A stretch of 64,000 nucleotides of DNA from Haliotis cracherodii (Eukaryota): positions 5,208,001 to 5,272,000 of the forward strand of contig NW_027266280.1 in NCBI RefSeq assembly GCF_022045235.1, read 5' to 3'. Positions 12,435 through 63,998 of the stretch are shown here, piece after piece. The translations under genes were made by a program, and so were the position numbers. A model generated the notes under the pieces. It had not been told where the DNA came from. It searched no databases and saw nothing but the letters and a program-made list of their open reading frames with translations. Each line of letters begins with the position of its first letter. Position 1 is the stretch's first letter.

Positions 12435-12581
12435 NNNNNNNNNNNNNNNNNNNNNNNNNNNNNNNNNNNNNNNNNNNNNNNNNNNNNNNNNNNNNNNNNN
12501 NNNNNNNNNNNNNNNNNNNNNNNNNNNNNNNNNNNNNNNNNNNNNNNNNNNNNNNNNNNNNNNNNNNNNNNNNNNNNNNNN
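12435..12581. other. Assembly gap (147 N)
   Basis: Run of N. Confidence 1.
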
Positions 12582-28950: not shown

Positions 28951-29023
28951 ATGGAAATGAGGTACATCCCCATCGTCATCCTGATTGCCTGCTGCTGTAG
29001 CCTGGCAGGATGCAAGTCACTGC
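28951..29023 (+). CDS. G2 signal-peptide exon (MEMRYIPIVILIACCCSLAGCKSL)
   Basis: Acceptor TTTCTAATTCAG at 28935; hydrophobic core with CCC; phase-1 donor GTAAGA at 29024. Confidence 0.85.
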
Positions 29024-29444
29024 GTAAGACATTATGGACATTCCATCTACAATTCGCCGCCCAAAGCGCCACCTAGCGCAGGAAAGAAATCCCAGATTTC
29101 CCCTTAAATATGTTTCTAGGTTTACCAGCTCATTCCCATTTTCTTGGGTTTACCACATTAAGATGCCTGGCTGTGACATAATTAAAAATGAACAGAAAAA
29201 AACTCAAACTCAAATACTGTTCAAAGTGACGTTAAACCCAACCCGCTGATTCACTTGTTAAATATACATGTACACTTGTATTTATAAAACAATAATGTAT
29301 ATCATGTGTAGATACAGGCTCGTTTGTATAGAAAATTAAGGGACCAACATCATTAGAGTTGTACATGCATACAATGGCTGCATGTATTGGTGATTATTAC
29401 CATGACTTGTGATATTAAATATCTAATTATTTTTCTGATGCCAG

Positions 29445-29492
29445 GTAAACGGAGATTTGCACAACAACAACAACCACAAGCCACAGGCCAGT
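29445..29492 (+). CDS. G2 48-nt mini-exon (R-KRRFAQQQQPQATGQ)
   Basis: CCAG acceptor and GTAAGT donor, phase 1-1, open frame, RKRR site. Confidence 0.8.
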
Positions 29493-29721
29493 GTAAGTAC
29501 GTCTACCCCTCACACGATAGAACCTTTTCGGGAACACCTGGTGTCATCACTGATTTTCAGTGATCCATTTTCATAATTTTCACAGGCCCGTGTAAGTACC
29601 TTTACCCCTCACACGATAGAACCTTTTCGGGAACACTTGGTGTCATCACTGATTTTCAGTGATCCATTTTCATAATTTTCACAGGCCCGTGTAAATACGT
29701 CTACCCCTCACACGATAGAAC
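29482..29721. repeat. 99-bp tandem duplication (2.4 copies) including the mini-exon donor
   Basis: CACAGGCC(A/C)GTGTAA(G/A)TAC at 29482, 29581 and 29680. Confidence 0.9.
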
Positions 29722-30265
29722 TGCATACGTTGTACGTGCAATAGTTTTCTAAAAATGCTTACCCTTTTCGAGAATACCTGATGTCATAACTGATTATCAG
29801 TGATCCATTCATATAATTTTCACTGCTAATATGGAATCTTTTTCGGCGGATAAACGAGACATGTAATTCTCAGGCGTTGACGTTTTATATAAATTACTCA
29901 CAGTATATACCAAACAATTTGTTGAAAATACTATTTGTATTTGTATTAATCCATACACGACACCAGGGTGTAATAAACATGCGTATTTCGTAACCGTAAG
30001 AAACCTCTGCTAAAAGCAAAGTCCGTCGTTCGATTCCGACTATATCTGAAGCATTGGTTTATGAATCACTATCAATTAGTGTAGGTGTTTTGCTTAAAGC
30101 TGAGCACCAATCATAAACACATGCAAAGGCAAGTCAACTGTTCACCCGAAGAAAGCAGGGAACATATGGTACAAGTCAAAATAGGGACTTTCATCGACAT
30201 TTACTCACACCTTACAATGACAATTGTCAGAACATTCTATCTGACCTCTGTCCTTTTAATTTCAG

Positions 30266-30621
30266 ATTCGGGAAACATTGACCTAATAAGCCTGCTTCTT
30301 CAAGGTCAAAGTCAAGCCCAAAGTCAGAACGCTTCGGTGGGTGGCACCACATACTCTTTACAGAATCCATCACCTGTACCTGTCTATCAGCCATACTATG
30401 CCAATTATCAACAAGGGATGTCTCCGTACCAGAAGCTCCTCCAGTACTGGGTCATGATGAACAGAATGTACATCCCTGGCATGCAGATCACCAACGACCC
30501 TCGCTTCCCCGGAGGCGGTGTGGTCACTGCAGGTGATGGCAGAGATGGCACGGTCGTCAACCGTTACGGCATGCGGGCCACCGTTGACGGCACAGATATT
30601 TCTTGGGATGGCGGATGGTGA
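30266..30621 (+). CDS. G2 terminal exon: Q/Y-rich region plus conserved domain (158-aa protein)
   Basis: Acceptor TTTTAATTTCAG in phase 1; ..PGMQITNDPRFPGGGVVTAGDGRDGTVVNRYGMRATVDGTDISWDGGW*; shares TNDPRFPGG with G1. Confidence 0.9.
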
Positions 30622-32039
30622 ATTTGACAGTTTAATGTTTAGGCTAGTTATGTACTATTGCCATTTGGCACTTGTCTCAAAGCTACGTGGCCAGTCATTC
30701 CCGTTTCTGAGACTCGTCGAAGTTTTGTTTCATATATCTAATATCGGAAAGGTTTGCGAGGAAATCTTTTGAATTAAGAAATATGAACTCGTTCTAACGC
30801 GTGTCACTCGGCTTTCATTAGTACCATCTACATTCCATTACTCCCTTTATACATTACCTAAGCATAAATATGTCCACAACTACCACAGAATGGTAACTTT
30901 CCATAAATAATGATGTTTTTGTTTCATTGCTGTCCACATATTCGTCAGGGTATTTAATCTACTACCATTAGATAGTCCAGCTTGGTGCTGTTATGTTTAA
31001 TTTTATAAAGCAAACGGTTTGTGTGTTGAGTGATCACCTCAGTGCAAGTGGTGATTAAGACGTATATGGTATCCACGGAATTTTGTCTCTTAAGTCGTAA
31101 CATCCATCCGTGGCAAATTGCAGTTTAATTTTCTGTTCCATCTCTGAAAGTGCCAACATATGTGTACATCGGCGACATGTGAAAAACGTATGATGCGTTC
31201 ACTGTAAGAGATCACAGTGACATTTAGCTCCTTTCGAAATGTCCTCTTGTGTTGATAAAATGTATTTTGACAAACGACATTTCATTTCAAAGGGCCTTAA
31301 TCATTCTTTATCTTGTACAGTTATGGATAATAAAGTGTTGTTTTTTTATAAAGATCGTTTATCATAGTTTGTATTTGACACCTCTCGTATAACTCTCCTG
31401 TTTTCATTTGTTTGCGGAATGATTACATAGATTATTCAGAATGACAAGGATCATTTGTTTAACAGAAAACATAATAATGTAACAGTCCGTCTAAAGAAGC
31501 ATGATAAGATGACAATGAGTTCCGATCATCCGCTGAAACACAATCTACCAGGCGTAAAGGTAGAATAACAGTGAAACTTAAATGAATGGATCACTGAAAA
31601 TCAGTGAAGACTCCAGGTTCTCGCGCCAAGGGTGAGGGTGTCCTGCCCTAAGTGTATCATCCGCCTCCCACACAATGGTAGTGAGAAACGTGTTCGTCAG
31701 GTGCCCGACCCGCAGAGAAGTGTTCTTGCCATACGACCGTATATAAACATTCAAGAGCGGCGGTTCGCCCCGATTATGTTTCTAGGTTTGTCAGCACCAT
31801 ACACGTGCTCGGGGGTTTCACCAAAGTGGTAAAGTCTGAGACCTGCATCACTTCAGGCCTTACCCCCACATTAAGCTGACACGCCGTGATATAACTGGAA
31901 TACTGTTCAAAGCTGCTTTAAATACACCTCACTCACTCATTCAAGTGATGACCCAATGACTGTCAGACTACAGTAGACATTTACATATCCATCTGTTTCA
32001 AGATAAGGAATTTTACAGACAATTATACGTACTTATACG

Positions 32040-32282
32040 AGAATTTATGGATATCAACTTCTTTATTATGAGGAACACAACGTTTTGGAGTATATTCTTA
32101 CTCCTTCATCAGGTGAATAAATGCTATGAAGCAGAGAACATATAGCATTTATTCAGAGCAAGTATTCACCTGATGAAGGGGAAAGTATATACTCCGAAAT
32201 CTTGTGTTCCTCATAAAACAGAAGTTGAAATCCATAAATTCTCATCCTTATGTGTATCACTTCTTAATGCCTTTCAAAGACT
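32040..32282. mobile_element. Inverted pair of Penelope-type pLTR fragments, each with a degenerate hammerhead
   Basis: Inverted arms of about 80 bp; CAC-CTGATGA-A-GG(A/G)G..CTCC-(G/A)AAA..TT-GTG on both strands. Same family at 47488-47560 and as another inverted pair at 58843-59025. Confidence 0.7.
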
Positions 32283-32587
32283 TCATATGTTTCATGATAA
32301 TCCCTCGATTCACATGTGTAATTGTGATTCTCTTCACCATTGCTGACCATACATTACCTTATTTAAATGTGAATGTCTGTGCCCTGACTGGTTGAAACAG
32401 TGTCTGTGATCGCAGCTCACTTCTCTGGACCTCTCATTGGGTATGATAAATGGTCTTGATAAGTATCATTTGCAAAGTTGGAAACCGTTCAATTTGGCGC
32501 AGGCGTCACGAATACTGCATCAATTTTAATTTCGCTTCATTAATATTTATGAAATGATTCGATTTAGTATGTTGTTCACTGTATGTG

Positions 32588-32627
<40 letters not shown>

Positions 32628-33553
32628 CTGCTTGCACTAGTCCGGACTAATGCCGATTTTATCATGCTAGCTCGCTGAGATACCATGCCTCCATTTACAA
32701 GAATACCACAATCAGACGAAGTATACTGACTCCGAGCCGACGAGTTCTTGTTTGAGCCCCTTAATGCTGACCGCCAGACAGGGTAACAACAAGTCCGTCT
32801 TTTAACGTATTTGGAATGACTCGGTTTAGGATCGAACCCCGGACCTTCCGCTCTCCGGGCGGACACACGGAGGCGGTCTATTCTCTGTAACCAAAACATA
32901 TAATAGAAAAGAATATTTCAATTCAGTCGTCAGTGTAACAGGGCGCTATGATGTAATTCAGTAAAGAACTTTCTTTTTTGTTCCTGATTGACACAGTCTA
33001 AAGTAAATCCAGACAACAAAGAAGCACAATGTTTGCACGTGCCTGAAAAAAATCGACGGCGACAATAAACGAGAACTAAACACGTCCGTCTGAAGCCTGT
33101 AACTACAATATTAAGGCGCAACAACCCACAACATGACATTAAATTAGGAAAATGGCACCAGATTTAAAACAAAAAAGACATCTGGTGTCTCCATTGTAAT
33201 TGCAATAATTCATGAGTAGAGTTATTCGGTGCTTAAATTTGTGGCAGCTCGAAAACCCTGAGGCATGGACTTGTTAAAGTAAGTTGTCTTGCCGGTTGAA
33301 AGGGTATTGACTTGTACGCCATTTTCGGGAAAAACGCCAGACATATATATCTAACTGAATGTCTGTGTTTTGTCGAGGGAGAGGGTGGGGGCGATTGTTA
33401 GACTCGTGGTTAAAACGTTCGCTCCTCACTCCGAATGCCCGCATTCTCTTTCCTACAAGGGAAAACATTTCACGTACTCATTGTAATTGCACCAAAGTGG
33501 TAAACTTCCGGGACCTCAGCATTACCTTTTCAATGAACTCTTGTAGGTTTTCA

Positions 33554-33893
33554 GGTGAGGTGAGGTGAAATGGGGTTTAACGTCGAGTCCAAGATTATTG
33601 CACTTATATAGCGACGTGCATGTACGTGTGTGTGTTTGTGTGGCTGCTTGTACTAGTCCGGACTGATGCCGATTTATAGTGGTAGCTCACTGAGATACCA
33701 TGCCGCAGTTTAACATGAATACCCCACTCAGACACAGTGTACTGACTCCAAGCCGACCAGTCCTTGTTTTAGCCCCTTAATGCCGAGCGCCAGACAGGGT
33801 AACAACAAGTACCATCTTTTAACGTCTTTTGGTATGATGCGGTCGGGGATGGAACCCCGGACCTTCCGCTCTCCCACAAGACCACGGAGGCGG
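33554..33893 (-). mobile_element. Family D SINE
   Basis: Match to 5333-5650; flanked by duplicated TAGGTTTTCAG. Confidence 0.85.
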
Positions 33894-35269
33894 TTTATAG
33901 GTTTTCAGAGTATAGTTTGCAAAGGGCAACGGGCTGTCTGCCACATTCAAGTGACATGACCGAAAATATGTACAAGTCCAATGTGCAGTTCTTAAAGGCG
34001 TTCACGTTAGAAAATACATGTATTGTACTCTTTTAGTGGGGATTTCACTGCTATGTTGAGTTATGGACTCGAGACTCACTCACTCACTTACTCACTCGAC
34101 CACTCACTCGATCACTCACTGTATTATTCATAAAAGCTTGACTACCCAATTCAGACACAGTATACTGACTCCGAGTCGACCAGTCCTTGTTTTAAGCCAC
34201 TTAATAACGAGCGCCAGACAGGGTAACAACGAGTTCCATCATTAAACGTCATTTTGGATGACGCGGCCGGGGATCGAACCCGGGACCTACCGCTCTCCGG
34301 GCGGACGCTCTACCACTAGACCACGGAGGCGGTCCAAATCAGTGATGACACCAGGTGTTAGCGAGAGGGTAAGCAGGTCCTGTTCTGGAGCCACACCCCA
34401 GTATTCCTGCCAAGGGAAGCGCAAATACTATCTGGTGTATATCATGCAGCATCTGTAAATCACAACATATGCAGTGTCAGGTATGACAGGTGTGTGCCCT
34501 TTGATCTAAAAAATGACAATGTGACTTTATTATGGTGAAAATGGCTCAGGTTATAACCCTCATGGGCGTAAACCCACAGCCACATAACTCAGCTTTCACG
34601 TGGAGTCTTACATCACATAAATATGTTAGCCACACCTGTCGGTGCATATTAGTTTTCTGATCACATGAAATTCCTTCTTTGTCCCCATGTCAAAGGTGGC
34701 GCTATATAAGCATAATTATTAAGAGTGCTCGTAGATATTTGCAAAAGCACATGAGGCCTGGAAGGAGATTGAGGTGGGTTGTTTATATATCGGTATATCC
34801 TGGTACTAATATGTGTTTGTTTACCTGTGATCATAACGCTGTATCTACATGCATGGTATGATACGTTGGAGTCTGTTGACGTACGTGTACCTCAAACATC
34901 TTAAAATTGCTTAATGAAAGTGTTTTCATAATGGCAGGATATTCCTGTGTTTTGGATATTCCTTTGATGTTAACATTTTTCATAATAAACATGGGAAGTC
35001 ACAGGTATATTTCACTAGTCGGATCGGGTGGTCAGGCTTGCTGATTTGGTTGATGTCATGTCATCGTATCCCAATTGCGTAGATCGATGCTGATGATGTC
35101 AATCACTGGATTGTCTGTTCCAGTACGTATGGCAGGTTTCTAATCTAGTGTTTTTGAGGTTTGTTTTGTTTTGTTTTGTTTGTTTGTTTGTCGCCGCACT
35201 CAGCAGAAGCAGTGGTAGTTGTAGTTGTAGTAGTTGTAGTAGTAGTTGTTGAAGTATTAGAAGTATTAG

Positions 35270-35838
35270 TGAGTTATTCAGTATTCCAGTTATATCGCGG
35301 CGTGTCAGCTTAATGTGGGAGGAAAGCCCGAAGTGATGCAGGCCTCAGACGTTTCCCACTTCGGTGAAACCCACGAACACGGGTATGGTGCTTACAAACC
35401 TAGAAACATAATCGGGGCGAAACGGGATTCGAACCCACAGTCAAAGGTTTCTGGCGTGCCCAAGGGACGCACCTCTGCACAGCGAATCGCGGCGCCTTAG
35501 ACAACTAGGCCACCCGTGGCCCCCATTAGTAATAGTAGTTGTAGTAGTAGTAGAAGTAGTGAGTGAGTGAGTGAGTTGTGTTTAACGCCGCTTTTAACAG
35601 TATTCCAGTTATATCACGGCGTGTCAGCTAAATGTGGGAGGAAAGCCCGAAGTGATGCAGGTCTAAGACGTTTACCACTTCGGTGAAACCCACGAGCACG
35701 GGTATGGTGCTGACAAACCTAGAAACATAATCGGGGCGAACCGGGATTCGACACAATCATAGGTTTCTGGTGTGCCCAAGGAACGCAACTCTGCACAGCG
35801 AATCGCGGCGCCTTAGACGACTGGGCCATCCGTGCCCC
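35270..35838 (-). mobile_element. Two tandem family C SINEs within a (GTA)n tract
   Basis: Copies at about 35270-35524 and 35558-35838, separated and flanked by GTA repeats. Confidence 0.9.
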
Positions 35839-35875
35839 AGTAGAAGTAGTAGTAGGAGTAGTGGTAGGAGTAGTG

Positions 35876-35921
<46 letters not shown>

Positions 35922-35994
35922 CAGAAGTAGTAGTAGGAGTAGTGGTAGTAATAGAAGTAGTAGTAGTTGTAGTTGTAGTAATAGTAGTTGTTGT
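35839..35994. repeat. (GTA)n microsatellite
   Basis: Seen directly in sequence. Confidence 0.95.
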
Positions 35995-36221
35995 TTTCAT
36001 ATAATACCATAAACGTAGAGCTAAGAGTGTTCATATGATGTTATTTGAATTTCACTCTTAGTAACCTTATGGTTCAATATCTGAATACTTTAATCGTTTG
36101 AGTTACGTGATTCTGAAAAAGCGATTGTCATAAGAACATACACATTCTGTCACAGTTACTTCTGTATCTGTATATACGGGAAAAGGATTTAATTTCCATT
36201 TGTTTGTTTCAGGAATTGACA

Positions 36222-36279
36222 ATGACGGCGCTCGTAGCTCTGTTGGCCTGTTGGTTTATTGGATCTGTGTCAAGCCAAC
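36222..36279 (+). CDS. G3 signal-peptide exon (MTALVALLACWFIGSVSSQ)
   Basis: Acceptor TTTGTTTGTTTCAG at 36212; ATG at 36222; phase-1 donor GTAGGT at 36280. Confidence 0.8.
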
Positions 36280-36486
36280 GTAGGTATACACCGTACGACT
36301 AGATGTGCTGTTGCTATGATTTGAATTTCAATGTGATGATAATATTTCAATGAAAATAAACAGTTAACATGTAAGTTCGGTGTACAATAGAAAGAAGAAT
36401 ATTACCAAGAGGAACATTTTTCTTCACATACATTTCAACACAAATATGTTTATTACTATGAACAGGTGTTATAATCACCTAAACAG

Positions 36487-36650
36487 AGTGAGTGAGTATG
36501 GTTTTACGCCGCTTTTATCAATATTCCAACAATATCACGGCGGGGGACACCAGAAATGGGCTTCATACATTGTCCCCATGTCGGGAATCGAACCTGGGTC
36601 TTTGGCGTAACGAGCTAACGCTTTAACCACTTGGCTACCCTACCGCCCCC
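36487..36650 (-). mobile_element. Family B SINE in the G3 intron (rearranged + strand fragments also at 36797-37025)
   Basis: Consensus match; imperfect TSD ATCA.CT.AACA. Confidence 0.85.
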
Positions 36651-37085
36651 ATCATCTGAACAATCAAATGTATTTTACAACAAATCATTTAGTGACAAAA
36701 CCGTATGTGAATTAATAAGAACACAACAGAAGTGAAAGAAAAAAATCGTATTAACAAATGCGAATCATCATACTTATATTCTTTTCAATCCAGATTGGGG
36801 GCGGTGGAGTAGGCTAGTGGTTAAAGCGTTGCAATGTGTGAAGCCCATTTCTGGTGTCCCCCGCCATGATAGTACTGGAATATTGCTAATTCACTCACTC
36901 TAGGTTGGTAAATGTTCGTTCGTCACGCCGAAGAACCGGGTTCGATTCCCGATGTATGAAGCCCATTTCTGGTGTCCCTCGTCCTGATATTGTTGGATAA
37001 TGGCTAAAACCATATTCAATCAATCTATGTGGTTGTTTTGTCTATGCATTATTAATATATTTGTTATTTGTATTTCCATTCACAG

Positions 37086-37795
37086 GCATCATATGGTCAG
37101 GAAGTCCAAGAGAGATAACCATTCCCCTGGATGGAACTGGACCTCAGATCTCGGGGATTCCCCTGGGTCCTCAGATCTCGGGGATTCCGCTGGGACCCAA
37201 GATCTCAGTGATTCCTCTGCCACTTCAGATCTCGGGGACTCCTCTGGTACCTCAAACCTCAGCCCAAGTAGAGGTTCGATCGCAACCATGGCTTCTTAAA
37301 ACAAACTCCTTCCCCCAATCGCAGACTTTCACTGCCAAGTATCCTCACTTCCCATTGCGCTACCCCAAGGTATTCCCGATGCCGTATGTTCCAAAACCTC
37401 AAATCCAGACTCCCCAACAACCATTAAGACTACATTATCCTCAAATGCATGGCTACCAAAATCTTAAGCCTCAAATTAAACAATTTAAACCCCAACACGG
37501 AGCGCCTCTCTCTGCCTGGAAAAACAGCCCCGGCGGAAACGTCCTTGTTGTTCCTTTTGCGTCTTCAAATAAAGTGCAAACGGATCCAGTTGTCATGGCG
37601 GGATACATCCGCGCTTTGAAGAGTGGAGATCCGTGGAAACCTACCTTCCTACCTGGACAAGTCATCCCGAGCAATCTACTAATACCCGGCGGTGGTGTCG
37701 TTCTAGCCGGAGACGGAAGTGATGCAACTGTCGCTGGCCCAGCCGGAAGTTTTTCAATTGATGGAGGTGATGTGGACAGGGTTAGTGTTGTTTAA
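37086..37795 (+). CDS. G3 terminal exon: P/Q-rich with four PQISGIPLG-type repeats plus conserved domain (255-aa protein)
   Basis: Acceptor TTTCCATTCACAG in phase 1; ends ..LPGQVIPSNLLIPGGGVVLAGDGSDATVAGPAGSFSIDGGDVDRVSVV*. Confidence 0.9.
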
Positions 37796-38744
37796 AGTGA
37801 CATCGGCGTCTTTTCGTTTGGTTATGAAACATGGTGACAGTGTGCCCCTGTAGGATGTTCTATAAGTGCTCTATGGGGGCTGTGAAATGGACATTAAGAC
37901 AGGTGTGTAGGTATTATTTTAATTTTGTATTTTGTCTTTGAAACCGGGATTATTACTTTCCATACAACTGGATAATTACCCTGGATAAACGAGGCACCCA
38001 ACATTCATCCGGATGCCCAACGTAATGAACATCCAAGACGTGTATATTTCCAGCTGTGAAAGACCAACATTGCTTTCATGACTTAGAGCCATGGTAGACA
38101 TACGTGACGTGTTCTGTCCAGGTCTGTTGCTGTTCCACGTGGAATTGATTACCAGTGTTTCGGTGATCGATGTCAGAAGAAGTGCGCAAGGATATAACAG
38201 CTTGAATGTTACTGCATAAAGTACAATCATCAGTCGGTCGTTTCTTATTCCTACACATTCCCTACACAAGCGGACATTACAAAACGAGGTCATGTAATAT
38301 TGTAAAAGGATTTTTTCATAAGATATTTGCACCACCCATGTGATAAGGGACATTAAGGGTGAAAAATCACATTATTAATTTTCATTATATTTTAGAACTA
38401 CAGCATTTCGGAACACAGAAAATACTATTCACAAGCTTCAATTCATACTTATAACAGAGATACATGACATCACACATGGTGATCTTCACTGAAGTAAGTT
38501 GGCGTCAAATGTCTTTATGATATCACAGCATAATTGTATCCTAGCACCCATAAGGCCCATGTTCACCTGGTGGATCCCATTTATCTTTTTAAAGATGCGT
38601 TAAGTGTACCCACAAACATTCGTATTGGAGTTTCAGCACTAACCACACCTCAAACTTTCTTTCCATTGAATCGACGGCGCCTGAGTGTCGTTTATGGTGA
38701 TAGATTCATTTCTTTATTAATATGTAAAACGTCACTCAAGAAAA

Positions 38745-39480
38745 CTATCCAGCCACGCATGAGCAGGTTGTCTTAAATAACAATATGCTGCAAAACATGC
38801 ACACAGTTTGGCCGTTATACATGTTCACATGTAAAACTTCTCTCACGAGAAGTATCCATGGCCAGCCACGCATGAGCAGGTTGTCTTAATGAACAATATG
38901 CTACAAAACATGCACACAGTTTGGCCGTTATACATGTTCACATGTAAAACTTCTCTCAAGAGAACTATCCAGCCACGCATGAGCAGGTTGTCTTAATGAA
39001 CAATATGCTACAAAACATGCACACAGTTTGGCCGTTATACATGTTCACATGTAAAACTTCTCTCAAGAGAATTATCCAGCCACGCATGAGCAGGTTGTCT
39101 TAATGAACAATATGCTACAAAACATACACACAGTTTGGCCGTTATACATGTTCACATGTAAAACTTCTCTCAAGAGAATTATCCAGCGATGCATGAGCAG
39201 GTTGTCTTAATGAACAATATGCTACAAAACATGCACACAGTTTGGCCGTTATAAATGTTCACATGTAAAACTTCTCTCAAGAGAACTATCAAGTCACAGA
39301 TGAGCAGGTTGTCTTAAATTACAATATGCTACAAAACATGCACACAGTTTGGCTGTTATACATGTTCATAATAAAACTTCTCTCAAGAGAATTATCAAAT
39401 CACAGATGAGCAGGTTGTCTTAAAAAACAATATGCAACAGAATAGTTGGCTGATATACACACATGTATGTTAACATGTAA
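38745..39480. repeat. 107-bp tandem repeat, about 6.5 copies
   Basis: CAGCCACGCATGAGCAGGTTGTCTTAA recurs at 107-bp spacing (e.g. 38970, 39077). Confidence 0.95.
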
Positions 39481-40258
39481 AATTCACTGCAAGACACGGC
39501 CTCTTTGTTGCTGCTCGTTCAATGCTTCCCGTCAGTGTGTGTACACAACCCACCCCAGTGATCGCACGGTTACACACATGCAAATATGAAATACTTGTCA
39601 GTACCAACATAACAGGAGGTCCATGGGGTTAAGTGGTTAACTCCTTGTATACCAAGGTTCGAATCCAGAGCTGTATGTTGATAAATATTTAGACATACAC
39701 TTGGAATATATAATATCGTTTCACGTCTCGCGGCATTGCTTTCTACTGCATCTAAGGGGGAGTATGTATTAATTATGATATCACGACAGGTCGATCGCAA
39801 TACAAGAAGATATGTAACCCCCAAAATGTCATCGTGGTGTTCACAAACACACCTCATCACTTTTTGTTTGTTGTTTAACGCCACATACATCCAGCTATAT
39901 GACGGGTCTGCCAGTAATCGAGTATGAACGACAATCCAGTGATTAACATCATGAGCATCTATCTGTGCAATTGGGATACGATGACATGCTTCAACCAAGT
40001 CGGATAGCCTGACCACCCGATCCCGCTAGTCGCCGTTTACAAGCATGGGTTATAGAAGACCAAATTCGAACACAGTTCGTCACGAGGGATACATCATAGC
40101 AATCATTATCGTTCAGTCAATCTACACGCGCATGCATGGTTTGAAACATTCTTTCCAACCTGAACCCGCTGTGTTATGGTTTATGAACATACTCTCAAGC
40201 TGGTCGACTGGATACACGGACGACCCCGTGATGGGAGCGTGGATTCGAACCTTAAAAA

Positions 40259-40432
40259 CAGTAAACTACGGTAAACGAACTCAAAGGGGTCACTGATATT
40301 AGTTCGATATAACCGTAGTTCATTATAAGCTTATATACAGCATATGTACAGCAAATGGCTGGGACAAAAAAACTATGTTACTTATATCCGTCAGTTCGTT
40401 ACAAGCGTGTTCGTTATAAACGTAGTTTACTG
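40259..40432. mobile_element. MITE, Tc1/pogo-like termini
   Basis: TIRs CAGTAAACTACG / CGTAGTTTACTG followed by TA; internal TTCGTTATAA repeats. Confidence 0.75.
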
Positions 40433-43043
40433 TATAAGATACGCACGTCGCTTCAGTCATACATTACACAGATCTATACGAAGCAACAACAAAACTGAAT
40501 GTGCATCATCGTCGTGTCAGATTTTTGTTGCCTGTGAATTTGGAACGTGACACTATCAGCGTCGCTGTTTTTATATAGTGTTTTTGTTTATACCTGTTTC
40601 CTTACAAGAGTCAGTTTTGATCATCATTTTCAGATAATTATTGCTCTCTTCTGATAAATAGGAGCAAAAGTAAAATGAGATCCGATCACGTTTGCGCGCG
40701 CTAAAACCAGTAGAGTAGGCCATTTTCAATACGAGGAAAGCGTAAACTTGGGTGAAAGGAGGAAAATATTATATTTTCACAGTATAATTATAATAATATT
40801 TAGATTAGGTGAGAGAGAAAATGACGAAATTATTAAGTACTTTGAAGAATCTGAACATATTTTCCTCACTGTGACCACTAGAAAACATACATCCTCGTCT
40901 CCCCCGTATTTGTCAATTGGCGGTCTTACTTGGACCTTTGCTCAAATTATACTTGTATGACCAGTCCTTAAAATAAGACAGTTCCTATAATATGTTTTTT
41001 GATAAATCCGACTTTAAAATAGTATATATATAATAATTTCTATATATATACACCTTGATATATACATGTACATTTAAAGACATCCGTGATTGTTTATTTC
41101 AAGTAACGTTTCCCATTTCATTCCATTCTACAAAAGGAAACGTTTTATTTTGGCCTAGCGAAATTAGCCTGCAGGGAGGGAACATAACATAACTTAACAT
41201 TGTGAAGATAATCCCTTCTATATATACACAAGAATGCATTCATCTTGCTCTTAGACAAGATTGATTTTGTTTACAATTTCAGTCTGCCAACAGAGGGCGT
41301 TGGCATTTCCAGGCTTGATGGAAGTAGCCGAAAATGAGATTGCACATCAGATCAGCTGTTTGACGTGACGTTATTCGCGCCACAACACACGAGGTCAAAC
41401 GACAAATTCCCAGCGATCTATTATTAGCCTATACAAATATAATTGCAGATTGTAACGTCATTGAACGAAAAAAACAAAGCGTTTACTCATTGCTGACGAT
41501 ATTGATAACATATCAAATACAGGTTTAGACTTGCGATATATTATCTTACGATAATGGAGTGTACAGTCAATATCAATAACTTGTGAATGTAATATTAATT
41601 AGATTCCATTTCAGAATGTTGGAAACACAAACCCTATCATGTTAAGATAAAATATTCCATTTTCTTAGGAGATTTATAATGTGTATTTGATAATACTTAT
41701 TCATTCATAAATAGTTATCAATGATCGTGTACAATCACAGCATCTTACATGTATGTCTAGACACACGGAAAATACTTTCTTAGCAAACTAGTCATAGCGC
41801 CATTATCAGTTTCAGGGAAAGGAAAAATAAATCGAAATAAAACTTAACAGCACATCGTATCCTTAAGCGGGTGACTCAAATGCGAAAAGGAATCGGTGTC
41901 ATTATGTCAGACGTAAAGTTGATGTTTTCAGTAGTTGTATTATGTTTGTATCGTGTGTACCTTCGACAGAAACTGGGGTCGAGGTTACACATGGGACACC
42001 GACCTTGACACAAGCTGTTTATAATATGGCGTCGACTCACGTTTAGATGTCGTCGCCACACTTTTGAAATTCCCTTTTTCCACACAATGTAAAACGGTTA
42101 GGGTAATTAATTCACACTGTCGGATAGTTGATCAATCATACGTGTCTTAGTAATTTCATATACGAAAAGCAACAGATATTTGCCGAAACGGGCACGTATA
42201 CAGGACATAGCTGTGGTGCGAAAGTGCTGTGTCTATTAATTGGGGTTTGGCCATTCAATGTTTATGTGTTGGTCGTGGACTTCCTGCCTCTAAACCTAAC
42301 TTGTATCACCTAAAAATTTGACGATCTTAACTATCTTTCTATATATTAACAGAACGACAATCAGTACCGTCGTTTCGTCTCATGTCATTGCTAAATCGCC
42401 ATGACACACAGTCAATAAAAATATAAAGTACTTAAACAAGAAACTTCATTGCGGCCAAATTGTCAACAGTCTTATGGCAACAACTATACATTGGGGAAAA
42501 GTAAATCTTTCCGACCAGTCTGATCAGTTTTCTTTTTCAAGTAGGCGGCCTGATACTAAAATAGTTACGTGCATGTGACATGGATACATAATAAAAGAAT
42601 TGCCATACACAAAGAGAGACATCTGTCACACACCTGCAGTGGGTTCTGTATTTCATGGGTGTTACGTAAATATCTTTTTAACGAACGCGTGATGTTTCGT
42701 AAAACATAAACATTATTAACCCCCATGTTCTCCGGCATAAATCTTGCGAGACATGAAAGTAGTGGATACATACGTAAAAAGTGGATTAATTATAGCCACA
42801 GAGGATACTGGTCTAAGACAGGGTTGTGACGTTACTCCGGAGCTTTTAGGCCTCGGGTGATAAATTGTTTACCAACATCAATCTGACAGAATGTGGTGAG
42901 CGTAGGCGAGACGATGTCTTGTCGTGAGGTCAAGTATGGTACAGTAAGCTGTGATTCACCTTCACGTACATCCGAAATTCATAAATTGGGCCAGTGACGT
43001 GTTTTGCGCAGGTTTTCACGTCAATGTTTTCTGGATATTTTTG

Positions 43044-43126
43044 TATAAAAGGGGGTACGGGCTATTGTATCTTCAGTCAACTCAAATTTGCCATCGTATT
43101 TCGGCACTATTGTTACAGACTCTCGT
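43044..43126 (+). promoter_or_regulatory. G4 TATA box, Inr and non-coding exon 1
   Basis: TATAAAA at 43044; TCAGTC with the A at 43075 (+31); donor GTAAGT at 43127. Confidence 0.75.
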
Positions 43127-43551
43127 GTAAGTATAACTTTTTCTACTTCTCATAATACGTGTCCATGATGCTAATATTAGTTTATAAGTAGTATGGCCCG
43201 AGAATGTTGAGAAGCGTAGACTGTAGTTCCAGAATATTCATTCTATTTTAATGATAAGAAAGTGTATATAAGACGAAAGAATCATTCGGTAGGACATTTG
43301 TTCAGGAAATATAGCAATTGTGAAAGTATAAACACAGATGACTTCGTTCTATGATAGAATCGTAGGTATTTGTCTCTAAATTCTAAATACAATAGACATT
43401 TGAGTATAAAATAAAACTCATCCTCAACCTCAGAGCTTCTTGCTGCTGTTTCCAACTCAATTTCTATCCGATGAACATTTCATAAAGGAATTATGAATTT
43501 CCTTTATGGTGATTCATTTATTTGTTCACTTATTTCTTTTTTTTCAGAAAC

Positions 43552-43618
43552 ATGAATACTCTTCAAATCCTCGTAATTGTTATGGCTGCATGCTGTGGCG
43601 GTCATGCAAGACATATCC
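43552..43618 (+). CDS. G4 signal-peptide exon (MNTLQILVIVMAACCGGHARHI)
   Basis: Strong polypyrimidine acceptor at 43547; AACATGAA start context identical to G1; phase-1 donor GTAAGT at 43619. Confidence 0.88.
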
Positions 43619-43880
43619 GTAAGTGTTACGAAGTTGACTAATATAAATAAATGAAATCAACATCATCAGGATGAAGATGACGAATCAATGTATGAATTAA
43701 TATTATACCGTAAACAAAACCTTTTTCCAGTCTCATGATATAATAAAAAATCTGGAAATAATATCTATTTACAAATTGATATTAGCGTCCCCTACACATC
43801 GGTGTTATGTACATGTTGTATATTTCACCGAGCGTGCTACATTATAATCTGTTGGAACATATTTGCATGTTACTTGAATG

Positions 43881-44075
43881 TGGTGTTCACACTGAAGTTC
43901 CTGATGTCCCTGATGTTCACACTGAAGTTCCTGATGTTCCTGGTGTTCACACTGATGTTCCTGATGTCCTTGCTGTTCACACTGAAGTTCCTGATGTTCC
44001 TGGTGTTCACACTGATGTTCCTGATGTCCCTGGTGTTCACACTGAAGTTCCTGATGTCCCTGGTGTTCACAGTGA
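43881..44075. repeat. 30-bp minisatellite, about 6.5 copies, intronic
   Basis: Unit GGTGTTCACACTGAAGTTCCTGATGTCCCT. Confidence 0.95.
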
Positions 44076-44229
44076 TTTTCAGTTGTCTATTCTTGTTGTT
44101 TTCACTACTATTTTGCCTTCGCGCCAAGTAGAATCCGTTTCGGTAGATAATCGAGACTGATTATTCTCCGACGTTTACATTCAATATTTTCTAAAAGACA
44201 CTTTCTAATTTCCTATTTTATATTTGCAG

Positions 44230-44262
44230 GTTCCAGGCGTTTTGTTAACCAGTCACCTGCAG
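44230..44262 (+). CDS. G4 33-nt mini-exon (R-SRRFVNQSPA)
   Basis: TTTATATTTGCAG acceptor and CAG|GTACAG donor, phase 1-1, RSRR site. Confidence 0.8.
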
Positions 44263-45201: not shown

Positions 45202-45312
45202 ATTTATTTCCACCTGGTGCCAATCACCTGAATATTCGCTCGCTTATGGCTCTCATGAACAATCCAGTGATGCTGCAAGGTTTTGGTCAGGGTAACACTC
45301 AACAACAAAAGC

Positions 45313-45343
<31 letters not shown>

Positions 45344-45854
45344 GCAACAAGGAACGGCTAACATTCCACAAGCCAAATCAACCACTCCAGCACCCAAAGG
45401 TCAAGGTCAACATCAACAATATCCTCTTCCTAACCCGCCAGGGATCCAGACGCAACCTCAAACCCCGCCTATGACCCAACAAACACAGAATCAGGGATCT
45501 GGTCAAGGTCAAGGTCAAGGTCACGGTCAACCTCAAAGCCAAAATGCAGGTCAAGGACTGACACAACAGGCTCCCGTCGCTGCTCCTTCTACCAATACTC
45601 AGAGCACTGTCAATCCAATGCAGCAGTTTATGAGGTATTCAGGCATGTTCACCGACCCAATGTTTCTGCGATACTTTCAACAATTCATGAGGAGGATAGA
45701 CATGATTAAGCACAAGTACACGAAAGGGGAGTATGTCCCCCCAAAAGGCCTTTTCCCCGGGGGATATGTGATAAATGCTGATGGTAGTGATGCGGAAGTA
45801 AGGGACATATACGGAAGATTGCACTCAATTGATGGTGGCGTTTTCCAAGCATAA
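45202..45854 (+). CDS. G4 terminal exon: polyQ and GQ-rich region plus conserved domain (250-aa protein)
   Basis: Acceptor CTTTTTCAG in phase 1; ends ..KGEYVPPKGLFPGGYVINADGSDAEVRDIYGRLHSIDGGVFQA*; AATAAA at 46063. Confidence 0.9.
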
Positions 45855-54517: not shown

Positions 54518-54593
54518 ATGACGTACTGGCGTTTCATCTTGTGCACTCTGGTGTTCTGTTATGAGGCCCATACGCAGCATATTGGTGTAGCAC
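54518..54593 (+). CDS. G5 signal-peptide exon (MTYWRFILCTLVFCYEAHTQHIGVA)
   Basis: Acceptor TTTTGTTGCAG at 54506; phase-1 donor GTATGT at 54594. Confidence 0.75.
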
Positions 54594-56513: not shown

Positions 56514-57176
56514 GTATTCGCTCACTCCTACCCCAAAGCGTTGCCTTTAAGCTGCTTCTACTAAAACCACCCGCATCCAGAGGCAGCTTGTTTCCACAAG
56601 GGAGAAACCCAGCAAGGAGACAAGTAGGATCCTCATCCGGAGGTCCATTTATTCCATCTGATCCCATCGGAGGCCCTGGCTTTGTGCACCCTCTACTTGA
56701 CCCTAATTATGGCAACAGCCACAACGGATTTAATGGCTTTGGTGGTTATTCCGAGACCATCTCGCCAACAGGTTACCCCGGAGATATGTCTGGATCTGGC
56801 ACATTTGGTGGTCCTTCTCCAGGGTCTCCGGGTTTCTCTGGAGGAAGTCCTCTTGGTTTGTTAGGTGTTGATTCCACAGGGTTTCCTGGAAACCTGATGG
56901 GTTCGGGGGGTTTACTTGGCGGAATGTCAAGCACTGGAAATAAGGAAACAGGATTTCCAGGACTACATCTTGAACAAACTTCAGGTGGGTTTGGACAAGG
57001 CCCTGTTGGAGATTTCTTTGCATCGGGCCAGAACGGAGGTCTTCTCGGGTTAGATGTGATGCCTGGTAGTCTTACAGGAGGTTTTCCTGGTGGAGCTCCA
57101 TCACTACTTGGACACTCTGAGGGTTCACAAGGATTTGGCATGTCTATGGGATTGCCTGGCGAGCTTCCTGGCACAG
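56514..57176 (+). CDS. G5 Gly-rich internal exon (GFPG/GLLG motifs)
   Basis: Acceptor TTTTCTGTTAAAG, in frame with ORF 56588-57196; phase-1 donor ACAG|GTATGG; 663 nt. Confidence 0.8.
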
Positions 57177-57546: not shown

Positions 57547-58043
57547 AACAACAAAGCCTTAACAAAGGGATGGCAGTGAATATTTTGCGGGAAACGTCCC
57601 CAACCTCTACGCCACAAATGGCAAAAGTTGCTCCGACGAACCCTGGCCAGTCTTTTACCTCTGGACCCGTAACATCCCCGGTAAATAGGAGTAAAATACA
57701 AAAAAATATTCAAAACCCGCCACGTCCAAAAGTGCAGCAGAGATTACAAAATTCTCGTCAAACTGGAGCCGGTAAAGGGCCAATTAGAAGAATCCCGGAA
57801 TCTGCTGTGGGAGGTATCAATCGCCCTGCATCAATCAGAGGTGTACAGCCAATCATTCCACCTATCATACCATCAGGTGTTCCGCCAGTCATTCGGCCAG
57901 GAACCGTACTTCCACCAAGTGCTTTGCTGCCAACTGGAGGAGTGGTGCTTCGTGTTGATGGCAGCGATGCTGTTGTGGCGTCTCCCGATGGTGTAGAAAC
58001 GACCGTAGATGGAACTGACTTCAGTCAAGAGGTAGTTGTCTGA
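57547..58043 (+). CDS. G5 terminal exon: basic P/R-rich region plus conserved domain (protein about 423-440 aa)
   Basis: Acceptor CATTTTCAG in phase 1; ends ..RPGTVLPPSALLPTGGVVLRVDGSDAVVASPDGVETTVDGTDFSQEVVV*. Confidence 0.88.
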
Positions 58044-60704: not shown

Positions 60705-63700
60705 CTAACCACTTGCTTCTGGGAAAGCTGGAGCTCCACGATTGCCCCCCTCCGCCATGAAAGATCCAGCTGCGTCTGTGTTGGTGAACCTACGAGAATT
60801 ACTAAAAGACAGACCATTCATTACAGATGACCCATACTGAGTACTGTCCATTTGAGAAGGTAATGAACCAGCCATATCAATGGTGAGAAAATCACTTCGG
60901 TCCCTGGCGGAATTTCCATTTGTGTTGGCATTGGATTCTAATGGTCTTGATAGATATTCGCTGTTTGAATGCACATTACCGTTCTGACTATTTAGTCGTG
61001 CCATTGTTCCAGCATCAAGAATGCCACCATCCATCATTACAGGTCCGGTTACGTCCGAGTAGCCACGGGCATTCATAAAGGACTCGACAGCTGTCACAGG
61101 TGATCCAGGCTGATTCACATCAACTTGGGAAGGAGAGTTTCCTACGTTATTTGTGTTGCGACTGATACCTGAAGGTGAATCTGCCCATCTTGCCATGGGA
61201 ATGTGAGATGTAGAATCTCTGTTAAAGTCCATCAAGTTACTATTTGGACCAGACAGTCCTGTCGAGTCTTGCGCACCACGATACCCCCCATCCATCATTG
61301 GAGATCCATTTTGGTCTGTAAAGCCACGAGTATCCATAAAGGCTTGTCTGTTCATATCCATCACAGGTGATCCTGATGGGGAAAAGATGTTGCTATTCGT
61401 GGATGAAAGTCCTTGTCCATTTCTAGAGGTCAGTCCGTGAATATCCATGGAAGAAAGAATTTGAGAATTTCCATCAAACATTGCATTGGACATATCATTA
61501 TTGCTCCCTGAGCCGACATGCCTGCTTTCACCGGATGATGTGCCCATTTCGATTGGTCCATTGGCCAGTGGAACTTGTTCTACTGTCAAACCCATCATAT
61601 TCTGATCGGCTTGCTGAAAGTCGTTTATATGTGATCGACGTACATCCATGCGTCCGTTAAGAGTATCAAAGTTTGTTGCACCTTGACCACCGGCATTTGA
61701 TGATCCACTTGGATCCAGCATACCCAGCATATCTTGGCTTGATCGCATAAAGTCTCTGCTTCTTGATAAGCTTACATCAACATTATTTAAGGAATTTGAA
61801 AATCCGTCCACATTGTTCATCCTTTGCCCTTGGCCTTCAGTCATAAAAGACCCTGACGCATCCATCATTCCTATCATATTTTGTCCCAGCTGTTGGAAAT
61901 CTTGTGCAGTTGATCCACCCATATTTCCCGTCATACTTCCGTCAAGAGTATTTATGGATGTTCCAAATCCATCTATATTGTTCCTCATTTGCCTTCTGTC
62001 AGCATCCATCACACCCATCATATTTTGTCCCATTTGTTGAAAATCCTGAGCAGCTGATCCACCCATATTTCCGGTCAGAGCTCCGTCTATAGTATTCATG
62101 GATGATGCAAATCCATTTATATTGTTCCTCATTTGCCCCCTGCTACCAGTCATGGAAGACCCTGCAGCATCCATCATGCCAACCAAATCCCGTCCTTGTT
62201 GCTGAAAGTCTTGTGCGGTCGAACCACCCATATTTCCAATCATACTGCCGTCAACAGCAGTGAAGGAATTCGAAAATCCATCAAGATTGTTCAAGATTTG
62301 TCCTCGGCCACCAGTATTGGTAGAGCCTGTAGAATCCATCATACCCGTCCAATCCCGTCCTTGTTGCTGAAAGTCTTGTGCGGTGGATCCACCAATATTT
62401 CCAGTCAGTGGTCCATTTATATTATTAACGGATGTTACAAATCCATCTATATTGTTCCTCATTTGCCCTCGGCCACCATTCATAGAAGACCCTGTGGCAT
62501 CCATCATACCTATCATATTTTGCCCTTCTTGCGGAAAGTCCTGTGCAGCTGTTCCTCGATTTGCTGATGACATTGGTGACATCATTTCTGACATAGAGTT
62601 TTGAAGATTTGATGATAGATCGGCTGCATTTCCAATGTTACCAGTAGTGTCTGTTCTTCCAAATCCAACTGATTGTGGCTTGTTTATGAATAACTGGTCT
62701 AAGTTATTGGAATTGGAGACGATTTGTCTGTCAGGACGTGTCATCTTCCCGTCCGGCTGACTGACGACCCATGAGGGTTGCATGGACATCGCTTGACTTC
62801 CAGAGGGAACAAAGCTGATTTCAAGCACTTTAGCACCTCCAAGCATATTGCTTGTTTCGGCAGCTAACATATCTGGTTCGGGCGTTTGGGGGAAATTGGT
62901 CTTTGCATTGCCAGCATTGTCCATTTGGGTTGGATTACGAAGAGTCATTTGATCACGAGGTGATGCTTGATTACGAAGAGAAGTTTGATCACGGGGAGAT
63001 GTTTGATCACGCAGCGATGCTTGATTACGGAGAGAAGTTTGATCACGGCGAGAAGCTTGATCACGGGGAGATGTTTGCTCACGCAGCGATGCTTGATTAC
63101 GGAGAGAAGTTTGATCCCGGGGAAAAGATTGCTCACGGGCGGTTGTTTGATCACGTGGAGATGCTTGATTACGGGCAGATGCTTGATCACGGGGGGATGC
63201 TTGATCACGGACGGTTGTTTGATCACGGCGAGAAGCTTGATCACGGAGGGCTGCTTCATTACGGAGATAAGTTTGATCACGTGGGGATGCTTGATTACGG
63301 AGAGATGCTTGATTACGGAGGGACGTTTGATCACGGGGAGATGTTTGCTCACGGACGATTGTTTGATCACGTGGAGATGCTTGATTACGGAGGGACGTTT
63401 GATCACGGGGAGATGTTTGCTCACGGAGGGTTGTTTGATCACGTGGGGATGCTTGATTACGGAGAGATGCTTGATTACGGAGAGATGCTTGATTACGGAG
63501 GGATGTTTGATCACGGGGAGATGCTTGCTCACGGACGGTTGTTTGATCACGTGGAGATGCTTGATTACGGAGAGACGCTTGATTACGGAGGGATATTTGA
63601 TCACGGGGATATGCTTGCTCACGGACAGTTGTTTGATCACGACGAGAGGCTTGATCACGGAGAGACGCATGATCTCGAAGGGGAGCCTGATCACCATTCG

Positions 63701-63998
63701 ACATGAGGGTAGTATTTTGTAATTGACTCATTTCCATAGAACCGCGGGCATTTCCTTCTTGTGGGCGCAGATTTTCTGTTGAGACTGTCTTGATCTGCTG
63801 TGCTGATTCCATGTTTGAGATAGAGGCTGTTTTGGTCTGTTGCATGCTCTGTCCCATGCGCCTTGGGGTACGAAGCATATTGGGAGCTTGCATCATCGGT
63901 GTGTTTCGGCGTGGCTGTGGCATCATAGTTGGCGCCGGTCCTGGTGCTGCTGTGTTTGAGGAGGGTCGTCTCATATTCGGGAAACCACCTGACTGTCT
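60705..63998 (-). CDS. G6: terminal exon of a large repetitive low-complexity protein (M/G/N/S/Q/D-rich), 5'-incomplete
   Basis: The 1089-aa ORF stays open to the window edge (RQSGGFPN before the listed Met). About 740 aa lie outside the simple repeat and have codon-level structure. Minus-strand AATAAA at 60430-60435. Confidence 0.88.
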   Translation of the reverse strand, partial: RQSGGFPNMRRPSSNTAAPGPAPTMMPQPRRNTPMMQAPNMLRTPRRMGQSMQQTKTASISNMESAQQIKTVSTENLRPQEGNARGSMEMSQLQNTTLMSNGDQAPLRDHASLRDQASRRDQTTVREQAYPRDQISLRNQASLRNQASPRDQTTVREQASPRDQTSLRNQASLRNQASLRNQASPRDQTTLREQTSPRDQTSLRNQASPRDQTIVREQTSPRDQTSLRNQASLRNQASPRDQTYLRNEAALRDQASRRDQTTVRDQASPRDQASARNQASPRDQTTAREQSFPRDQTSLRNQASLREQTSPRDQASRRDQTSLRNQASLRDQTSPRDQTSLRNQASPRDQMTLRNPTQMDNAGNAKTNFPQTPEPDMLAAETSNMLGGAKVLEISFVPSGSQAMSMQPSWVVSQPDGKMTRPDRQIVSNSNNLDQLFINKPQSVGFGRTDTTGNIGNAADLSSNLQNSMSEMMSPMSSANRGTAAQDFPQEGQNMIGMMDATGSSMNGGRGQMRNNIDGFVTSVNNINGPLTGNIGGSTAQDFQQQGRDWTGMMDSTGSTNTGGRGQILNNLDGFSNSFTAVDGSMIGNMGGSTAQDFQQQGRDLVGMMDAAGSSMTGSRGQMRNNINGFASSMNTIDGALTGNMGGSAAQDFQQMGQNMMGVMDADRRQMRNNIDGFGTSINTLDGSMTGNMGGSTAQDFQQLGQNMIGMMDASGSFMTEGQGQRMNNVDGFSNSLNNVDVSLSRSRDFMRSSQDMLGMLDPSGSSNAGGQGATNFDTLNGRMDVRRSHINDFQQADQNMMGLTVEQVPLANGPIEMGTSSGESRHVGSGSNNDMSNAMFDGNSQILSSMDIHGLTSRNGQGLSSTNSNIFSPSGSPVMDMNRQAFMDTRGFTDQNGSPMMDGGYRGAQDSTGLSGPNSNLMDFNRDSTSHIPMARWADSPSGISRNTNNVGNSPSQVDVNQPGSPVTAVESFMNARGYSDVTGPVMMDGGILDAGTMARLNSQNGNVHSNSEYLSRPLESNANTNGNSARDRSDFLTIDMAGSLPSQMDSTQYGSSVMNGLSFSNSRRFTNTDAAGSFMAEGGNRGAPAFPEASG
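61690..62550 (-). repeat. Coding 165-bp (55-aa) repeat, 5 copies plus degenerate ones
   Basis: AQDFQQxGxxxxGMMDxxGS..GQMRNNIDGF..DGxxxGNMGGS; identical DNA motif at 62206 and 62371. Confidence 0.9.
62931..63686 (-). repeat. Coding 18-bp tandem repeat: 42 x [AT][ST][LPV]R[DNE]Q
   Basis: Counted from APLRDH to MTLRNP in the translation. Confidence 0.95.

Follow-up and report, generated by a model that had tools for sequence, protein, structure and literature searches.

The 64,000-nucleotide (nt) window analysed here (Haliotis cracherodii, contig NW_027266280.1, positions 5,208,001 to 5,272,000 of the forward strand; window coordinates count from its first letter) is a tandem array of five same-strand Haliotis paralogues, G1-G5, with a C-terminal domain common to all. 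In two of them, G2 and G4, both abalone genes for secreted proteins of the shell matrix, a signal-peptide exon and a very short second exon together encode R-x-R-R followed by Phe. This motif is a well-supported candidate for a furin-type site behind a 7-residue propeptide, conserved in G2, G4, a G4 duplicate outside the window (G4b) and the G1 of H. asinina. The process that best accounts for it, and that we consider probable, is removal of a short basic mask by a proprotein convertase.

In G2, the signal-peptide exon (28951..29023, + strand) ends one base into the P4 Arg codon, and a symmetric 48-nt mini-exon (29445..29492, +) provides the rest of R-K-R-R and then F-A-Q, ahead of a last exon (30266..30621, +) with the family domain at ~30424-30618. 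In G4, the signal-peptide exon starts at 43548 and has a 67-nt coding part (43552..43618, +); a symmetric 33-nt mini-exon (44230..44262, +) completes R-S-R-R and continues with F-V-N-Q, and the last exon (45202..45854, +) encodes a poly-Q/P/G region and the family domain. All introns of the two genes are GT..AG and phase 1, and the first Arg codon of the motif is split C|GT over the first junction, giving R-K-R-R|F in G2 and R-S-R-R|F in G4. Exon structure, RefSeq models and contigs agree here with the sequence-only reading that preceded this work. That reading also held that the motif is assembled across the splice junction. The first Arg codon is indeed split, but only one base crosses, and the arrangement is an ordinary one, since phase-1 introns are overabundant near signal cleavage sites (PMC1626468, consulted in part) and both G3 and G5 build a split Arg without any site. 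The sixth family copy, G4b (L008), lies on the minus strand of the same contig at 4835117-4837245, ~415 kb from the window cluster, and is a recent duplicate of G4 with ~88-93% DNA identity including introns. Its intact 33-nt mini-exon gives R-F-R-R|F and differs from that of G4 at 3 of 33 bases: one changes P3 and two are silent, one of the latter in the P2 Arg codon.

Transcript data were contigs from 6 of 21 listed runs, whose RNA nature is guessed and whose source organisms are some percent off the window; such contigs drop rare forms. Spliced G1, G2, G3 and G5 match RefSeq H. cracherodii proteins letter for letter, G2 being identical to XP_071110968.1. Its second joint, 29492->30266, was found in contigs of 3 of 4 runs with flanking sides of only 26-29 letters. 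The first joint, 29023->29445, is absent among the 15 joints listed for a region swamped by repeats (2099 more are unlisted), and its support is the RefSeq models of three species. For G4, the joint 43618->44230 was present in contigs of one of four runs (X4; depth 2430, side 33). Thus of the two junctions that the sequence-only reading had put forward for checking, the G4 one is seen in contigs and the G2 one in RefSeq only. The X4 contig with the G4 mini-exon continues 22 letters into exon 3, and in run X9 exon 1 is joined to a G4b-type mini-exon; runs X1 and X10 had no contig at the G4 signal exon and are uninformative. A 5' untranslated exon of G4 (3' end, 43102..43126, +) is indicated by the GTAAGT donor that follows it and by the loose end of an X9 contig before 43548. 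Inclusion of the mini-exons in transcripts is therefore supported by the G4 contig running into exon 3, by the second G2 joint and by a junction-spanning G4 shell peptide described below.

The canonical convertase motif is R-X-[K/R]-R, as the sequence-only reading had stated (PMC2820236, consulted in part). We aligned seven N-termini (G2 from three species, G4 from two, G4b and H. asinina G1), which are related and represent about three independent paralogue lineages. All 7 have Arg at P4, P2 and P1, where Lys never substitutes, while P3 (K/S/F/D), P6 (S/H/N/V), P7 (K/T/R/M), P1' (F/L) and P2' (A/V) vary. Fixed arginines with varying flanks are the pattern expected of a convertase site, and an acidic or aromatic P3 would suit a protease site better than a charge patch. 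In 3412 other window trials, R-x-[KR]-R followed a random YAG plus C/A 11 times, 4 of them with F or L next; first-intron YAG sites give the motif at 1 of 27 in G1, 1 of 30 in G2 and 1 of 32 in G4, and at 0 of 14 in G3 and 0 of 46 in G5. The H. cracherodii genome also encodes convertases, with seven P_proprotein (PF01483) matches over cut-off.

The 7-residue length, which had been claimed as kept, is indeed so in G2, G4, G4b and H. asinina G1, but like the split Arg codon it was inherited from an ancestral signal exon rather than held against a background of unrelated sequence. In G1, in G4 and, counted from Met3, in G2, the signal exon has 67 coding nt, and exon 1 of G1 aligns without gaps to those of G2 and G4 (6 and 7 of 21 residues); equal exon length and gapless alignment together imply that the fixed length was passed down. 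The surroundings, described as unalignable, are so for G2 versus G4 (2 of 21 residues) but not for G1. The exon-1 shuffle value (p <=0.005, 20,000 shuffles) is inflated because signal peptides share a hydrophobicity pattern, and kinship rests on exon length and phase.

Both G2 and G4 have the hydrophobic core and the (-3,-1) sites of secretory entry, and for the H. laevigata orthologue of G4 a SignalP assignment of 1-19 is reported, which leaves a 7-residue propeptide (PMC6003135; this source was consulted in part, here and below). By peptide and sequence match, its shell proteins idb_54301, idb_28907/idb_36084 and idb_16318 are the orthologues of G2, G4 and G3, respectively. The G4 orthologue idb_28907 was recovered in 6 of 6 nacre fractions at 0.057-0.179% and the G2 orthologue idb_54301 in 6 of 6 at 0.009-0.653%, each of them also in 2 of 4 prismatic fractions at 0.005-0.021%. 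The G3 orthologue idb_16318 is a major protein with values in six columns, which we read as nacre, and none in the other four. Motif searches of the supplements consulted yielded no orthologue of G1 or G5. The boundary between the G4 mini-exon and exon 3 is covered by a single nacre peptide (idb_28907, residues 27-46). The composition of G1, G2 and G4 is Q 12-21% and G 11-15%. The family is thus secreted, biased in composition and, for the G2, G3 and G4 orthologues, recovered from shell, the features by which low-complexity (RLCD) molluscan shell matrix proteins are recognised. PMC6003135 lists the idb proteins as separate and uncharacterised; the sections consulted do not group them into one family, and the words furin and propeptide are absent from the main text consulted.

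Several points weigh against cleavage at this site or against the role that we attach to it. H. asinina G1 has Asp at P3 and Leu at P1', so that Phe is not invariant at the latter position as had been thought. The (-3,-1) rule allows 8 candidate signal cuts in G2 and 6 in G4. The shell peptide beginning at F27 is tryptic, has one tandem mass spectrometry count, and has the very end that trypsin would yield; a ragged form makes up 7 of 30 spectra at the K-K site of idb_28907, and idb_54301 is N-terminally truncated in that database (PMC6003135). Since ragged forms are only 7 of 30 at the K-K site, a lone F27 spectrum without one says little. Finally, propeptide removal would lower the isoelectric point of G2 from 9.5 to 4.9 in two species; in H. 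rubra the drop would be no more than from 10.5 to 9.9, and G4 would remain basic, so the charge switch is unconserved. We rejected such a switch as a general mechanism on the ground that H. rubra G2 and G4 do not fit it.

We nevertheless favour the following course of events. In G2 and G4 the transcripts contain the mini-exon, and it supplies most of the R-x-R-R motif. Signal peptidase would cut after residue 19 in G4 and after residue 21 in G2, the latter being one of several (-3,-1)-allowed sites and among those shared with H. rubra. A furin-type convertase would then cut R-x-R-R in the late secretory pathway, taking off the 7-residue propeptide and leaving a Phe N-terminus. From the N-terminal sequences, we think it probable that this cut, and the signal cut before it, are made in G2 and G4. 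Until Golgi exit the basic peptide might mask the Phe/Gln-rich N-terminus and in this way tune self-association rather than targeting, a suggestion that we make only tentatively. Control of sorting, which the sequence-only reading had offered as a role, has lost ground: G3 is a major nacre protein without the mini-exon, which makes sorting unlikely as the main role, and G1 is transcribed without it.

In G1 the mini-exon has decayed. Its signal-peptide exon (21116..21182, +; 67-nt coding part, phase 1) is joined to the last exon (22428..22834, +), which encodes a Q/G/P-rich region, an internal R-N-R-R and the C-terminal family domain, and the product is XP_071111084.1. Between them lies a 28-nt relic (21619..21646, +) that is frameshifted and skipped. 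It gives R-N-R-R-F from its 5' part and, in a different frame, N-P-Y from its 3' end, and both match the ends of a 12-residue insert in the N-terminus of H. asinina G1 (P0008), which keeps R-D-R-R|L seven residues past its likely signal cut. Judged by the length of the H. asinina protein, the relic would have suffered a net loss of 8 nt. The sequence-only reading had entertained this piece as an exon giving the same motif; that proposal fails, because including the 28 nt stops translation after 46 residues and because in 3 of 4 runs the contigs go straight from 21182 to 22428, skipping 21619-21646. RefSeq G1 models of two species also join the signal exon directly to the last exon, and an intronic contig of run X1 has further differences at the P4 codon of the relic and at donor +5. 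Splice-site scoring did not separate the relic from used exons. The convertase site is therefore lost from G1 in this lineage, and G1 is still transcribed. Searches turned up no H. asinina counterpart of G2 or G4, which is weak evidence. The internal R-N-R-R|L/M of G1 (~22660-22675; P0012 residues 100-104) lies just before the family domain and is kept in H. cracherodii, H. rufescens and H. asinina, whereas G2 is without it; it could release the C-terminal domain.

The two remaining paralogues have no mini-exon. G3 has a 58-nt signal-peptide exon (36222..36279, +) with a split Arg (C|GC) and no convertase motif, and a last exon with the family domain (37086..37795, +); its spliced product is XP_071111066.1. 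In G5, a 76-nt signal-peptide exon (54518..54593, +), again with a split Arg (C|GT) and no convertase motif, is followed by a G/P/S-rich exon 2 (56514..57176, +) placed by the spliced-product match and by a last exon (57547..58043, +) placed by that match and by domain alignment; the spliced product is XP_071110958.1. The N-termini of G1, G3 and G5 in the window contain no R-X-[K/R]-R. Because the exon is missing from G3 and G5 and has decayed in the G1 of this lineage, the proposed convertase step is dispensable in the family.

Among other explanations, the one that fares best, though we regard it as unlikely, takes the heptapeptide for a spacer that fixes where and how well signal peptidase cuts, its later removal being mere clean-up with no effect on assembly. 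The short fixed length beside a signal peptide with several possible cuts fits such a spacer, the convertase step is compatible with it, and a role in signal cleavage has been proposed for the propeptide of proparathyroid hormone (proPTH); however, G1 retains the signal exon and is transcribed in spite of having lost the arginines, and G3 is secreted into nacre without a heptapeptide.

The sequence-only reading had further predicted that skipping of the symmetric mini-exon would give an uncleavable isoform. Its symmetry holds in G2 (48 nt) and in G4 and G4b (33 nt), where skipping would keep the frame, and fails in the 28-nt G1 relic; no skip form is seen in G2 or G4 contigs. Specifically, there is no G2 skip joint among the 15 joints listed and, of the 24 loose ends listed for G4 (12 more are unlisted), none behind 43618 is of the skip type, in contigs that lose rare forms. 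The contigs give inclusion only for G2 and G4 and skipping only for G1. A regulated cassette, in which alternative splicing makes cleavable and uncleavable isoforms that differ in sorting or assembly timing, is accordingly very improbable in our estimate. Beyond the symmetry, it draws on the transcribed skipped form of G1, on RefSeq XP_071110655.1, which models G4b minus its DNA-intact mini-exon and first ATG, and on the Gigantopelta aegis homologue LOC121368135, whose four RefSeq isoforms (P0026, P0034-P0036) have 0, 1 or 2 near-identical 15-residue cassettes in the same place, directly past the signal region. Yet the start of XP_071110655.1 at an internal Met points to a poor model, the G4b-type contig of X9 and RefSeq XP_048247589.1 both contain the mini-exon, the Gigantopelta cassettes are without R-x-[KR]-R, and G3 gets into nacre without a propeptide. 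Skipping is thus known as a fixed loss in G1, one unverified G4b model and the motif-less Gigantopelta isoforms. The mini-exon slot is, at any rate, labile in evolution.

The last alternative, that the motif is uncut and its Arg cluster stays on the mature protein to bind acidic matrix proteins or mineral, can be invoked because the only N-terminal datum at the site is one tryptic peptide and because two other major H. laevigata shell proteins (Tri_33510 and Tri_64952, judged by eye) have basic clusters after the signal (PMC6003135), but it is highly unlikely: all 7 proteins keep the R-x-R-R spacing exactly, with P3 tolerating Asp or Phe and no Lys at P4, P2 or P1, and one would expect a site of this kind to be cleaved when it stands in a disordered secreted protein.

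Removal of a short basic mask by a convertase, our preferred reading, can be taken one step further. The symmetric mini-exon might act as a plug-in switch, inclusion producing a convertase-gated precursor whose Phe/Gln N-terminus is unmasked only on secretion and then drives assembly, and skipping or loss producing an ungated form; we hold this to be a long shot. If true, G1, which has the exon in H. asinina but not in H. cracherodii and H. rufescens, would amount to a natural experiment on the timing of shell-protein assembly. If the site is cut, mature N-termini would begin seven residues later than databases assume, which bears on recombinant work and on proteomic searches. The family is also a clear case of exon decay removing a processing site in one lineage. 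Shell matrix protein processing is little studied outside cases such as Pif; the mechanism considered here is a textbook one, and what it adds is a point of nacre biology that can be tested rather than a new principle.

Short N-terminal convertase propeptides are familiar from proalbumin. The abalone precursors resemble proPTH in having a signal peptide followed by a short predicted N-terminal convertase propeptide. In proPTH the propeptide is 6 residues long and is removed in the Golgi by convertases, furin being the most efficient, and most of the prepro part comes from exon 2, the mature peptide from exon 3 (PMC9558279, consulted in part). The abalone propeptide, by contrast, would have 7 residues, with the site carried by a symmetric mini-exon of its own, and its predicted cleavage would yield a low-complexity matrix protein; no sequence kinship is claimed. 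Pif of Pinctada fucata is likewise a nacre matrix protein with a basic processing site, being cut at a basic four-residue/dibasic site (PMC11291548, consulted in part). Pif is split into two large functional halves that carry VWA and chitin-binding domains; G2 and G4 would instead release a 7-residue peptide, and they match no Pfam family over cut-off. Coral galaxin, a protein of the skeletal matrix, combines a signal peptide with a site for dibasic processing, but its sequence is unrelated, with Cys-rich repeats and a longer pro-region (338-residue precursor, 23-residue signal, 292-residue mature protein; PMC2726143, consulted in part). LOC121368135 of Gigantopelta shares with the abalone proteins the signal peptide, low-complexity middle, C-terminal domain (E 1e-7) and cassette-like inserts after the signal, and differs in having no R-x-[KR]-R anywhere in the isoforms scanned, 3 of its 4.

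The family domain comprises ~60 residues with 11 invariant columns in the G1-G5 alignment. Four domain queries of the H. cracherodii genome gave no copies beyond G1-G5 and G4b, counts that are lower bounds. A profile search of 1.84 billion representatives returned 13 matches: 6 of Haliotis type, 1 from Gigantopelta, 3 likely relatives (P0022-P0024) and 3 others. The domain thus extends outside Haliotis to Gigantopelta aegis and three further proteins; P0021, P0025 and P0027 were rejected as family members, being judged repeat-driven noise. None of 7 exon translations matched Pfam at the curated cut-off, and the ESM Atlas gave no usable match. An AlphaFold2 model of the domain is a helix plus a four-strand meander (predicted local distance difference test score, pLDDT, 73.8); its best match in the PDB had Z 3.8 and none reached Z >=5 among 48,161 chains, and no fold was assigned. 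P0022 is a 443-residue protein with about five family-domain matches, short DG-x-D repeats and an internal R-K-A-K-R, and its repeats suggest that the domain may be made of hairpin repeats. The literature search found no paper on this family or its processing within its coverage, which leaves out subscription papers; queries with the family locus ids and two motifs returned 0 papers, and the main text of Marie 2010 has none of the sought terms. As far as this search reaches, the abalone family is undescribed.

Three further features of the window were noted. A 99-bp tandem repeat (2.4 copies, 29482-29721) begins in the last bases of the G2 mini-exon and places two copies of the donor region in intron 2, creating possible decoy donors. 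A run of 147 N occupies 12435-12581. Finally, an open frame of 1097 residues on the minus strand (60708-63998), which runs off the window end and matches no Pfam family over cut-off, is rich in Q/M/G/N/S repeats and resembles the terminal exon of a further secreted protein of low complexity.

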